From the NCBI GenBank assembly GCA_000004695.1, contig CM000151.3, positions 5,088,001-5,152,000 of the forward strand: DNA of 64,000 nt, written 5' to 3'. Shown here piece after piece: positions 32,434-36,359 of the stretch (position 1 is its first letter; the number at the start of each line of letters is the position of its first letter). The notes beneath the pieces are model-generated. The model was not told the origin of the DNA. It saw only the letters and a program-made list of their open reading frames with translations, and searched no databases. A program made the translations under genes and the position numbers. The DNA is from Dictyostelium discoideum. Taxonomy: Eukaryota.

Positions 32434-33567
32434 TTAATCATCAATTAAATTATTTTCGATTTCATTATGTAATTTACCAGCTTCTTTTAACTGTTCTTTC
32501 AAAATATTTTTTAAATTATTTTGAATAGAACCTGAAAAATTATTAATTTGGTTTGAATTATTATTATTATTTATATTATTTATATTATTTAAACTATTTA
32601 AATTATTTATGTTATTATTATTAATATTATTAATATTATTATTATTATTATTATTATTATTATTATTATTATTATTATTATTATTATTATTATTATTATT
32701 ATATAAGCCATTAAAATGTTTTTTTCTTTTTTCAATTGCTTCGGATTCAGGGGGATCATGATTATGTTTACCACGATAAGTATTGATATATTTTGAATCT
32801 TGTTGGATAACTTGTTTTTTAACTGGACATGTTAATTCAGCGCATTTGAAATAACTCTTTGGGAATGGACTACCCTTTACAGATTTTTGGCCATACTTTC
32901 TCCAAAAGAAACCATCGTCTAAATGGTCAATACTTGATCCAGTTTCAATAACTAACTTCTTTGAACCTTTTGATTCTGATGTTCCATTAAATCTATTATT
33001 GTTATTATTGTTATTGTTATTATTATTATTATTATTATTATCATCATTATTATTATTATTATTATTATTATTATTATTATTATTATTATTATTATTATTA
33101 TTATTATTATTATTATTATTATTATTATTATTATTATTATTATTATTATTATTATTATTATTATTATTATTATTATTACTTAATTGGTCAATATCTTCTT
33201 GGAATTCATCATCATCAGTAGTTTCATTTTTAACAGATATTTTTTTTTCTTGTTTAGAATTATTCTTTTTATTAGTCGAGTTTGTATTTACATATGTGGA
33301 AATAGATGTTGTAGTTGTTGTAGTTGTAGGTATTGTATTTTTTGGTGAATTCATTGGTGAAATTTGACCATGTTGAGTTGGTGAGTCTCCATTTTGATCA
33401 TTGAAACTATTACCATTTTGATCTTGGTTACCATTACTATTACCATTACCATTACCATTACCATTACCATTACCATTACCATTACCATTACCATTACCAT
33501 TACTATTACTATTACTACTATAATTATTATTATTATTATTATTATTATTATTATTATTATTATTACC
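32434..33567 (-). CDS. wrky1: WRKY transcription factor, exon 2 of 2 (377 aa; (GN)n/poly-Asn linker, C-terminal WRKY domain; stop 32434-32436)
   Basis: 110-nt intron; acceptor aaaag (plus-strand ct, 33568-33569); phase 0. Second domain DGFFWRKYGQKSVKGSPFPKSYFKCAELTCPVKKQVIQ..HNHD. Exon sum is 1271 aa, matching my recollection of the single two-domain Dictyostelium WRKY protein. Confidence 0.85.
   Translation of the reverse strand, partial: GNNNNNNNNNNNNNNYSSNSNSNGNGNGNGNGNGNGNGNGNGNSNGNQDQNGNSFNDQNGDSPTQHGQISPMNSPKNTIPTTTTTTTSISTYVNTNSTNKKNNSKQEKKISVKNETTDDDEFQEDIDQLSNNNNNNNNNNNNNNNNNNNNNNNNNNNNNNNNNNNNNNNNNNNNDDNNNNNNNNNNNNNNNRFNGTSESKGSKKLVIETGSSIDHLDDGFFWRKYGQKSVKGSPFPKSYFKCAELTCPVKKQVIQQDSKYINTYRGKHNHDPPESEAIEKRKKHFNGLYNNNNNNNNNNNNNNNNNNNNNNINNINNNNINNLNSLNNINNINNNNNSNQINNFSGSIQNNLKNILKEQLKEAGKLHNEIENNLIDD
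33001..33178. repeat. (ATT)n on the plus strand, i.e. (AAT)n poly-Asn codons on the coding strand, inside wrky1 exon 2. Similar pure trinucleotide/hexanucleotide coding repeats occur at 32636-32700, 33431-33510 (CCATTA)n for (GN)n, 34084-34160 and 36101-36230 (GTTATT)n, and 34661-34750 and 35271-35340 (GTT)n for poly-Gln
   Basis: Direct inspection. The antisense reading produces the poly-L, poly-I and poly-C artefact ORFs seen in the track. Confidence 0.9.
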
Positions 33568-33677
33568 CTTTTATGAACCAATTGGAATAAATGGGTTATT
33601 ATTAATAAAAAAAAAAAAAAAAAAAAATTAATAAATACTTTCAAAAAAAAATTTTTATATAAATATTATATACATAC

Positions 33678-36359
33678 ATCCAAACCTTCAAACATTACAG
33701 AATTTCTAAATGCTTGTTGATCAGAGACAACCCTTGTTGTTTGAGGGAAACCATGACAATGTTCTCCTTTATAAACTGTACTATTTTGATTGGTATCACC
33801 AATTCTCTCAACCTGTTTTCTGACATTACAACCTTGAAATGTACATTTATAATAGTGTCTTGGATGTAAACTTCCCTTTACATTCTTTTGACCATATTTT
33901 CTCCATTGATAACCATCAGATACAATATTAGAAATATTATTACTATTATTACTATTATTACTATTATTACTATTAGTATTACTATTTTGAGGCGAGTTAT
34001 TATTATTATTATTATTATTATTATTATTCTGAGTTGAGTTATTTTCTTCATCTTCTTCATTATTGATATTATTAATACTATAATTGTTATTGTTATTGTT
34101 ATTGTTATTGTTATTGTTATTGTTATTGTTATTGTTATTGTTATTGTTATTGTTATTATTTATATTGTTATTATTTATATTGTTATTAGTTTTATTTTTC
34201 TTTTGTTTCTTTAAAGGTGTTGGTGTAGTAGTTGTTGTTGTTGTTGTGGTTGTTGCAGGTGATTGTTTTTGAGGAGATATTTGAACTGGTGAAAATGGTG
34301 GTTGTTGATCTGATAAATTACTTTTAGGTGAAGTTGGTACAACATTGGAAGATTTCTTTGAATAATAAGGTGATGATGAAATCATTGGTGGAATGATCTT
34401 TAAATTTGATAGAAATCCTTCTCCATTTGGTTTGTTATTTCTATAATTATTATTATTATTATTATTATTATTATTATTATTATTATTATTATTATTATTA
34501 TTATTATTATTATTATTATTATTTTCATTATTTTTACCAAATGCAGTTTCATTATCACGTTTAAATGGATTAGTTGGAATAGGTGGGAAATAATCATTTG
34601 GTTTTTGTTCCTCTTTCTTATTGGTATTAATTATTTTTTCAGTTTGCTCTTTGTCGACTTGCATTTCTTGTTGTTGTTGTTGTTGTTGTTGTTGTTGTTG
34701 TTGTTGTTGTTGTTGTGGTTGTTGTTGTTGTTGTTGTTGTTGTTGTTGTTTTTCACCATGTTCTTGTTGGATTTGGTGATAATTTTCTTCTTTAATTTGT
34801 AGTTTTTGAATTTTTGAATTGGTACGAGATTGGTTTTTATTGAGAAGAGAATTATCAAATTCAGAATGAGACGTTAATTGTTGCTTTGGATTTGATTGGT
34901 TTTTATCATGATTCAATTTTTTTTGTTTAAATATCTCTGACTCTGAGAATGAATCACTTTCATCATTATTATTTTTATTTTTACTTTTATTACTAATGTT
35001 GTTTTTTTTATAATTATTGTTATTATTACCCTCAAAATATTCATCATCATCGTCATCATATTTTTCATCATCATCATCATCATCATCAATATATTCATCA
35101 CTTGCATCATATTCATCTTCATTATCACTTTTTGTTAAAAAAGTTATTTGTTGTTTTACATTATGTGTTGTAGTTTTATTTTTTTTTTGTTTAGTGGTTT
35201 TATTTACAGAGTTTTTTACAATTGGTTGTAATTTATTATTATTATTATTATTTATATTTTCTATAGCATCCTTTTGTTGTTGTTGTTGTTGTTGTTGTTG
35301 TTGTTGTTGTTGTTGTTGTTGTTGTTGTTGTTGTTGTTTTTGTTGTTGTTTTTGTTCTTGTTCTTGTTCTAGTTGTTTTTGTTGTAATGCCAATAATTTC
35401 TTTGCCATATATTTACTAATTTTACCATTTTGTTGTGGTGAATTACCGCCATTAGTATCATTAAGATTGGATTTGAGTTTTGGTTTTTGTAATTTAGCCG
35501 ATTTGTTTGGTTTATCAACAAATGTTGGTTCATTATTTTCAATGGTGTCATCATCACCATAATCATCTTCATCATCTTCATTATTATTGTTGTTGTTGTT
35601 GTTGTTGTTATTATTATTATTATTATTATTATTATTATTATTACTATTATTATTTGTGGTTGTAGTTGTAGTTGTAGTTGTGGTGGTTGATGAACCATTT
35701 ACACCAACTTTGTTATTTTCATTATTATTATTATTGTTGTTATTATTATTATTTACATTAATTTCATTGATATTGGTAAGAAATGATTTATCTGGTGATA
35801 TGGATAGAATTGAAGAATTTCTTAATTCCTCAATTGAAAATGATTGATTCTCTTTCAATGATTGATGAAGTTTGTGGAATAATACTAACTCTTTTTCACC
35901 TGGTTTAATTTGATTTGCTGATTTGATCATATTTTGAATAAAATCTCTATCACTATTATTATTATTACTATTACTATTATTGGGTATGTTGGTGTCTTTA
36001 TTTGTATTATTTATAAGACTTTCAAAATAATTGGAATATTTATTTATTCCATTATTATTATTATTATTATTGCTATTGCTATTGCTATTGCCATTGTTTT
36101 TATTATTGTTATTGTTATTGTTATTGTTATTGTTATTGTTATTGTTATTGTTATTGTTATTGTTATTGTTATTGTTATTGTTATTGTTATTGTTATTGTA
36201 ATTGTTATTGTTATTGTTATTGTTATTGTTATTATTTAAATTTTCATTACCAGAAATAGTGTGATTATTATTATTATTATTATTATTATTATTATTATTA
36301 TTATTATTATTATTATTATTATTATATTTATTTAATTCGGTGGAATATTGAGCTCCCAT
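33678..36359 (-). CDS. wrky1: WRKY transcription factor, exon 1 of 2 (894 aa; extreme poly-Asn/poly-Gln/acidic low complexity; N-terminal WRKY domain at its 3' end)
   Basis: ATG at 36359 (MGAQYST..). WRKYGQK plus C-X4-C...H-X-H zinc finger ([41 protein letters not shown]). GTATGT donor immediately after GAT (plus-strand acatac, 33672-33677). Confidence 0.85.

Follow-up and report, generated by a model that had tools for sequence, protein, structure and literature searches.

The window analyzed here is a stretch of 64,000 nucleotides (nt) of the Dictyostelium discoideum genome (assembly GCA_000004695.1, contig CM000151.3, positions 5,088,001 to 5,152,000 of the forward strand), with a G+C content of 23.7%; coordinates below count from its first letter. 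On its minus strand, between positions 32434 and 36359, lies a gene for a protein with two WRKY domains, which we identify with high confidence as the previously described D. discoideum chromosome 2 gene wrky1 (AAO52331), comprised of two exons and encoding a group-I-like WRKY protein of 1271 amino acids (aa). The gene itself is already known and adds nothing new: publications from 2002-2005 onward cover its existence, two-domain architecture, intron and expression, and reviews of WRKY evolution use it as a stock example. The sole point that is possibly new is an N-terminal myristoylation motif that appears to have been kept across amoebae.

Gene structure of wrky1

A preliminary description of this locus, prepared from the DNA letters and a list of open reading frames (ORFs), had joined two minus-strand ORFs, 33666..36359 (897 aa) and 32434..33354 (306 aa), into one gene across a single intron. 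An ORF scan recovered both frames as stated, and reading the sequence confirmed the proposed splice signals, namely a GTATGT donor after a GAT codon (GAT at 33680-33678, donor from 33677) and an AG acceptor before GGT (AG at 33569-33568, GGT from 33567). A scripted splice at these sites reproduced the phase-0 join of 894 and 377 codons, giving 1271 aa with no internal stop. This gene model is right, and its elements are:

33678..36359, minus strand: wrky1 exon 1, 894 codons (aa 1-894), with the ATG at 36359-36357 and an N-terminus that agrees with the published DsWRKY1
33568..33677, minus strand: the single intron, 110 nt, phase 0, GTATGT...AAAAG, 88% A+T
32434..33567, minus strand: wrky1 exon 2, 377 codons (aa 895-1271), opening with GGT AAT AAT and followed by a TAA at 32436-32434

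Exon 1 closes with GAA GGT TTG GAT and the intron ends in ...CATAAAAG. When read unspliced, exon 1 terminates three codons inside the intron (TAA 33668-33666). All in-frame, stop-free GT..AG joins were enumerated. For the GTATGT donor a single acceptor of this kind emerged within 400 nt, the AG at 33569-33568, the next one needing an intron of 413 nt. Nor could the acceptor lie further upstream, because the exon-2 frame meets a TAA at 33573, two codons before exon 2 begins. At the other end of the gene the ORF opens with the first start codon to follow a stop, so that there is no in-frame start upstream of the initial MGAQYS. The 5' flank (36400-36700) consists almost entirely of A and T, including ~40 consecutive A around 36590-36630 and several stretches of T, a composition typical of promoter or intergenic DNA in D. 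discoideum.

Genomic loci of other amoebae contain an equivalent intron. In Acytostelium subglobosum (DF837573.1, hereafter L001) the annotated gene is interrupted once, by a phase-0 intron of 161 nt, GTATGTAT...CAG (L001:7444-7604), directly after ...SFKNSVISEGVV, and in Balamuthia mandrillaris (JAVKOQ020000631.1, hereafter L006) a phase-0 GT...AG intron (L006:2391-2471) follows ...TFKNSVLSEFLG. In D. discoideum, Acytostelium and Balamuthia alike (3/3 genomic loci examined) this inter-domain intron lies six residues past a conserved NSV; judged by its shared position and phase, it is orthologous across Dictyostelia and Discosea and an old amoebozoan intron. With orthologous introns in Acytostelium and Balamuthia, the two-exon model does not depend on the recognition of splice signals alone.

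It is hardly conceivable that the two ORFs are instead separate genes or transcripts, one for a protein of 897 aa with a single WRKY domain, terminated by the TAA at 33668-33666, and the other for a protein of 306 aa, also with a single WRKY domain, initiated by the ATG at 33354. Each ORF is indeed open by itself and holds one complete WRKY domain, and an intron-retaining mRNA would give the 897-aa product. However, only ~310 nt separate them, and within this gap a canonical GTATGT...AG intron brings the second ORF exactly into frame with the first, while the exon-2 coding sequence begins 213 nt before the ATG at 33354. Moreover, Acytostelium, Balamuthia and ~20 other amoebozoan-type proteins (defined below) have both domains in one chain, the intron is at the same spot in both genomic loci examined (Acytostelium and Balamuthia), and the published model is that of a single gene (PMC544883). 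We also consider it very unlikely that wrky1, while a single gene, has as its main product an isoform that uses another acceptor, is alternatively spliced or retains the intron. Exon 2 starts in an AAT repeat made up of A and T only, so that composition is uninformative in telling intron from exon here, and further in-frame AG sites do exist downstream. Against this, the next in-frame, stop-free acceptor, with its 413-nt intron, would lose coding sequence of conserved length, later acceptors would delete or truncate the second WRKY domain, and the published protein uses the AG at 33569-33568. Both the two-gene reading and the alternative acceptors were rejected on the basis of the GT..AG enumeration and the orthologous introns.

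The two-exon wrky1 model matches the published record. Zhang and Wang (2005; PMC544883) reported for D. discoideum one WRKY gene, located on chromosome 2 (AAO52331, DsWRKY1), whose two WRKY domains are separated by an intron. The protein in Additional file 1 of that paper and our spliced product agree at the N-terminus, at the exon junction between MFEGLD and GNNN, and at the C-terminus, HNEIENNLIDD; the supplement is machine-read text with garbled poly-N lines, so that the agreement covers the start, junction and end, and repeat lengths are not comparable with those of the published protein. The same gene recurs in the works of Babu (2006; PMC1702500), Brand (2013; PMC3834811) and Rinerson (2015; PMC4350883), and Forbes (2019; PMC6873476), who names it wrky1, places it under "Spore-specific" in Table 2, across dictyostelids. 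The exact 1271-aa sequence had no match in a collection of 15 billion proteins, and a phmmer search found no self match among 1.84 billion representative proteins. The UniProt entry WRKY1_DICDI is presumably also 1271 aa long. A literature search with a candidate dictyBase identifier for the gene, DDB_G0275267, gave no match, and we do not rely on this identifier.

The two WRKY domains

As had been proposed, each exon contributes one complete domain with a WRKYGQK motif and a Cys2His2 zinc finger, in a group-I-like arrangement. The WRKYGQK motif occurs exactly at aa 819 and at aa 1116, zinc ligands are present in both domains, and Pfam returns two matches to PF03106, with the bit scores listed below, against a gathering cut-off of 21. 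All four ligands of the second zinc finger are in place (C-X4-C-X20-H-X-H). The features of this part of the protein are:

33753..33917, minus strand: WRKY domain 1 (aa 815-869), with WRKYGQK and C-X4-C-X22-H-X-H; PF03106, 81.8 bits
33678..33752, minus strand: extension specific to the clade, following domain 1 (aa 870-894) and reaching precisely to the exon boundary
32755..32958, minus strand: WRKY domain 2 with the preceding strand (aa 1098-1165), KLVIET..IDHLDDG and WRKYGQK; PF03106, 80.3 bits, profile positions 1-59 of 59
32719..32730, minus strand: basic cluster KRKK (aa 1174-1177), ~10 residues past domain 2, a candidate nuclear localization signal

Sequence matches in the PDB have E-values from 1e-20 to 1e-23 for both domains, at 50-56% identity to Arabidopsis C-terminal WRKY domains. 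The best match of domain 1 is AtWRKY1-C (2ayd, E=3.7e-20) and that of domain 2 is the C-terminal domain of AtWRKY33 (8k31_B, E=4.1e-23), the latter alignment taking in the upstream strand KLVIETgssIDhLDDG. The zinc spacing of the family, C-X4-5-C-X22-23-H-X1-H, fits domain 1, whereas domain 2 departs from it with its X20 loop. An AlphaFold2 run on domain 2 with a 14-sequence alignment produced a model with five strands and a predicted local distance difference test score (pLDDT) >90 over the core (residues 25-80). In a Foldseek search of the PDB with this model, ranks 1-16 were all WRKY domains, followed by AFT2, with template modeling (TM) scores up to 0.81 and best root-mean-square deviations of 1.3-2.4 Å. 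Domain 2 is thus predicted to adopt the WRKY fold, which the three-residue-shorter finger loop leaves undisturbed in the model. Further, in the clade alignment of domain 2 the W, R, K, Y, G, Q and K of the motif, both cysteines and both histidines are invariant. Word-index homology searches, which reached one PDB chain with domain 2, only proteins of <= ~165 aa with the clade alignment and, with the full-length protein, 8000 candidates that had short words in common with it (most likely through the repeats) and none of which was scored, yielded no full-length dictyostelid ortholog.

An amoebozoan clade of two-WRKY proteins

A phmmer search of the 1.84 billion representative proteins, with the region from domain 1 to domain 2 as query, recovered 5219 matches at E <=0.001. 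The clade counts given here concern the best 150 of these 5219 matches, and we term amoebozoan-type those proteins whose last WRKY domain has an X19-21 finger. This short finger, also found in D. discoideum, is carried by 22 of the best 150 matches, and the named members among the 22 (Acytostelium, Balamuthia, Ceratiomyxa and Dracoamoeba) are all Amoebozoa; a Synstelium model truncated at its C-terminus (P0010), which is not among the 22, has the clade motifs. The amoebozoan-type orthologs have the same two-WRKY architecture, and an alignment of 24 amoebozoan-type proteins revealed the following shared elements: 1) a motif of the form TR(V/L)N..DQ.SF(K/R)NSV(I/L)SE after domain 1 in most members; 2) P(R/K)LV(I/V)ET..VD.LDDG preceding domain 2; 3) a KKKRK/RRRRR cluster ~10 residues past domain 2 in most homologs, corresponding to EKRKKH in D. 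discoideum. The top-scoring matches P0002-P0005, P0007 and P0008 are not amoebozoan and are proteins of 840-1180 aa with four or five tandem WRKY domains.

Evosea (Dictyostelium, Acytostelium, Ceratiomyxa) and Discosea (Balamuthia, Dracoamoeba) both have the X20 finger, the motif after domain 1, a start of the form MGxxxS and the basic tail. These common features, together with the intron position at three loci, point to the presence of the gene at or near the amoebozoan ancestor. The preliminary description had called Dictyostelium one of very few non-plant lineages with a WRKY factor; this view is dated, as WRKYs have been reported in diplomonads, several Amoebozoa, Fonticula and early-diverging (Mucoromycota-type) fungi (Rinerson 2015; PMC4350883), in addition to the amoebozoan homologs found here. 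WRKY genes are patchily distributed, and the same authors argue for lateral transfer; in its strong form their model would have Amoebozoa acquire the WRKY gene horizontally, and recently, from a plant or green alga. Such an origin would accord with the patchiness and with the 50-56% identity of both domains to Arabidopsis C-terminal domains, but we find it improbable, given that Evosea and Discosea have in common the X20 finger, the motif after domain 1, the MGxxxS start and the basic tail and that the intron occupies the same position at the Dictyostelium, Acytostelium and Balamuthia loci. A very ancient transfer is still compatible with these observations; if lateral transfer did occur, it was probably ancient. 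The conservation of the inter-domain intron, X20 finger, post-domain-1 motif and basic tail from Dictyostelium to Balamuthia, which places the gene deep in Amoebozoa, is relevant to the dispute over lateral transfer versus an ancient origin.

A conserved MGxxxS start

The preliminary description had remarked that the N-terminus, MGAQYS, fits the N-myristoylation consensus, and it does:

36339..36359, minus strand: MGAQYST, N-myristoylation consensus (Gly2, Ser6), a match to PROSITE PS00008

As used here, PS00008 calls for a Met-Gly start, a small uncharged residue at position 3, a Ser/Thr-type residue at position 6 and no Pro at position 7. An MG start that passes PS00008 was found in 11/22 amoebozoan-type proteins as against 3/128 others (Fisher p=1.4e-8, before correction of start codons and among the best 150 of 5219 matches), while an MGxxxS start is present in 13/22 amoebozoan-type two-WRKY proteins (two of the 13 by start correction) as against 3/128 others. 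Examples are MGTVSSH in Balamuthia, MGTAQST in Ceratiomyxa and MGTVNST in Dracoamoeba. Ser6 is present in all 13 motif-bearing amoebozoan-type proteins as well as in D. discoideum, with the rest of the N-terminal region not alignable. This conservation raises the motif from a pattern match to a conserved signal, lipidation itself being a prediction.

The two start corrections are as follows. The Acytostelium WRKY protein (XP_012759509.1, 692 aa) has an ORF that is open in frame for 411 nt upstream of the annotated ATG (L001 5590-6000), up to an ATG that gives MGAAQSTDG with a stop just before it; the resulting extension of 137 aa contains the motifs DISFVQHLL, IVFYHKVHQSI and LSPDKTIF, which match aa 136-195 of the D. 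discoideum protein (e.g. ISPDKSFL). The annotated start hence appears to lie 411 nt too far downstream. In a contig from a JGI metatranscriptome (Ga0484019_002379, 51-128, hereafter L004) the protein P0019 was called at an internal Met, and an in-frame upstream ATG after a stop gives MGTSASTQQD. Hidden upstream MG starts were sought in four homologs, of which L004 provided this one and the others none, L002 and L003 being genomic, with 5' exons that may be unseen, and L005 running off its contig.

The possibility that MGAQYS is a chance match, with the protein not lipidated and Gly2 merely reflecting a G at +4 of the start context, is a serious one to which we give somewhat less than an even chance. 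PS00008 is a high-frequency pattern, 13/127 non-amoebozoan-type matches in the same search also begin with MG, and lipidated transcription factors are rare. Furthermore, no second membrane signal is apparent: all 5 cysteines of WRKY1 are in the zinc fingers (5/5), its first 12 residues hold one Lys, and there is no N-terminal polybasic patch. What speaks against coincidence is that Ser6 is kept in 13/13 pattern-passing MG proteins across Dictyostelia, Ceratiomyxa, Balamuthia and Dracoamoeba, even though the N-terminal region around it is not alignable, and that two seeming exceptions turned out to be mis-called starts concealing MGAAQST and MGTSAST. It is conceivable, though on present evidence rather unlikely, that the WRKY1-type factors of Amoebozoa have truly been N-myristoylated since the amoebozoan ancestor and combine this lipid with a basic nuclear-targeting cluster, the lipid controlling where or when the factor acts. 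If so, they would constitute lipid-regulated WRKY transcription factors, a property found in no paper searched: a search of the literature on WRKY, Dictyostelium and myristoylation gave coincidental matches and no relevant paper, and one on myristoylated membrane-tethered transcription factors found none. The conserved start offers a cheap and directly testable hypothesis of a lipid-modified amoebozoan transcription factor, in an organism, D. discoideum, that has the genetics for the test.

Several points weigh against our interpretation of wrky1 and its product: 1) 9/22 amoebozoan-type homologs have no MG start in the models or contigs examined. 2) PS00008 is a permissive pattern. 3) The finger loop of domain 2 is X20 in place of the X23 of plant C-terminal domains, hence its specificity could differ. 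4) DNA binding, zinc binding, nuclear localization and lipidation are, for WRKY1, predictions from sequence. 5) The evidence for the splice consists of its signals, the reading frame, the introns of orthologs and the published model. 6) Identity with the database entry was checked against the machine-read, partly garbled supplement text only.

Proposed function and comparison with known systems

By analogy with solved plant WRKY-DNA complexes, the WRKYGQK β-strand of each domain is expected to enter the major groove of DNA and to read W-box-like TTGACY sites, with the zinc held by the Cys2His2 ligands. This mode of groove insertion, extrapolated from the plant complexes, would make WRKY1 a sequence-specific transcription factor, about two thirds of whose chain is predicted to be disordered low-complexity spacer of the sort typical of D. 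discoideum proteins. Because wrky1 is listed as spore-specific across dictyostelids, it may act in spore differentiation, paralleling the role of the Giardia WRKY on cyst-wall genes. Gly2 of MGAQYST could be myristoylated co-translationally as a substrate of N-myristoyltransferase, a proposal suggested by its conservation. The lipid signal and the conserved basic cluster past domain 2 together suggest lipid-dependent control of localization or of partner binding. Given that no Cys lies outside the zinc fingers and that an N-terminal polybasic patch is lacking, binding to membranes or partners would be weak, reversible or switch-like, and weak lipid attachment might be opposed by the putative basic nuclear signal after domain 2. 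The lipid might, for example, keep the factor at membranes until spore or cyst differentiation.

Plant group I WRKYs (AtWRKY1, AtWRKY4 and AtWRKY33; PDB 2ayd, 1wj2/2lex and 8k31) resemble WRKY1 in having two domains per chain, WRKYGQK, C-X4-C...H-X-H, the same predicted fold and 50-56% identity, and domain 2 of WRKY1 retains KLVIET..ID.LDDG, the additional N-terminal strand that is typical of C-terminal domains in group I. The differences are that: 1) the finger loop of WRKY1 domain 2 is X20 while that of plants is X23. 2) WRKY1 lacks the PR/R-type intron that land-plant group I genes have in the C-terminal domain, its sole intron being the one between the domains that is conserved in Amoebozoa; social-amoeba WRKY genes were previously noted to be without the PR intron (PMC4350883). 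3) The two domains of WRKY1 are ~240 aa apart, with poly-N, GN and T spacers between them. 4) The MGxxxS start and the DQxSF(K/R)NSV extension are amoebozoan features. 5) Published trees put the Dictyostelium domains on an early or intermediate branch, outside the flowering-plant groups.

The WRKY of Giardia lamblia, which activates cwp genes during encystation (PMC8584520), is likewise a non-plant, two-domain protein tied to a dormant walled stage, wrky1 for its part being listed as spore-specific. It differs in that its gene has no intron and that its domains, which in the published sequence have divergent motifs (WRKYGSK, WKYGHK-like), do not cluster with group I.

Several transcription factors are lipid-anchored or membrane-tethered, such as the myristoylated and palmitoylated isoform a of NFAT5 and the plant membrane-bound NAC factors. 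With these WRKY1 would share the combination of a DNA-binding domain, a nuclear-targeting signal and an N-terminal membrane-attachment signal, but in contrast to them it lacks a further lipid or polybasic signal as well as a transmembrane segment, and its lipidation is a prediction.

Low-complexity sequence

Asn alone makes up 34% of the WRKY1 protein. Over 60% of it had been described as homopolymeric Asn/Gln/Thr/acidic tracts, a figure that holds for low complexity in general (~63%) but not for homopolymers, which account for ~30%. Specifically, homopolymer runs of at least 4 residues cover 29.6% of the protein and N/Q/T/acidic runs of at least 3 cover 32.6%, as against the 62.8% covered by a SEG-like low-complexity mask (12-residue window, <=2.2 bits); arrays detected by Tandem Repeats Finder (TRF) comprise 42.5% of the bases of the coding sequence. 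These tracts had further been attributed to pure tri- and hexanucleotide repeats. The periods are indeed mostly 3 and 6, but TRF also reports 9, 12, 15, 18, 24 and 30, and the arrays have 74-97% matches, so that "pure" is too strong. Nor is there anything special about this locus as a hotspot of repeat-length polymorphism, which it had been suggested to be: coding repeats are polymorphic in length throughout the D. discoideum genome (PMC3460934), for which slippage and indel rates are also available (PMC7466956). One N-terminal segment is unmasked in the low-complexity scan:

35775..35954, minus strand: non-repetitive N-terminal block (aa 136-195, DFIQNMI...ISPDKSFL), common to the Acytostelium ortholog

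Genomic neighborhood

The wrky1 gene is located in a unique spacer of ~14-16 kb between the arms of an inverted duplication of ~8.5 kb with 95.8% nucleotide identity; no tRNA genes were found in the window. The features of this neighborhood are:

22179-30688, plus strand: first arm of the duplication
46215-54651, minus strand: second arm of the duplication
31568-31921 and 32143-32331, plus strand: two ORFs matching the N- and C-terminal parts, respectively, of the fumarylacetoacetate-hydrolase domain PF01557
38494-40119, plus strand: stand-alone beta-ketoacyl synthase ORF, 541 aa
40411-42120, plus strand: WD40-repeat ORF, 569 aa

Each arm contains an ORF for a highly reducing type I polyketide synthase with the domains KS-AT-DH-ER-KR-ACP, the two being 2475 and 2476 aa long and 96% identical. 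Both of these ORFs start inside the KS domain, implying that each needs an upstream exon. Weaker matching pieces of the duplication extend to ~31344 and ~45123. The two PF01557 ORFs are evidently parts of one gene split by one or more introns, which is convergent with wrky1, the stop codons of this gene and of wrky1 being ~100 nt apart. The beta-ketoacyl synthase and WD40-repeat ORFs both lie upstream of wrky1 within the spacer between the polyketide synthases.

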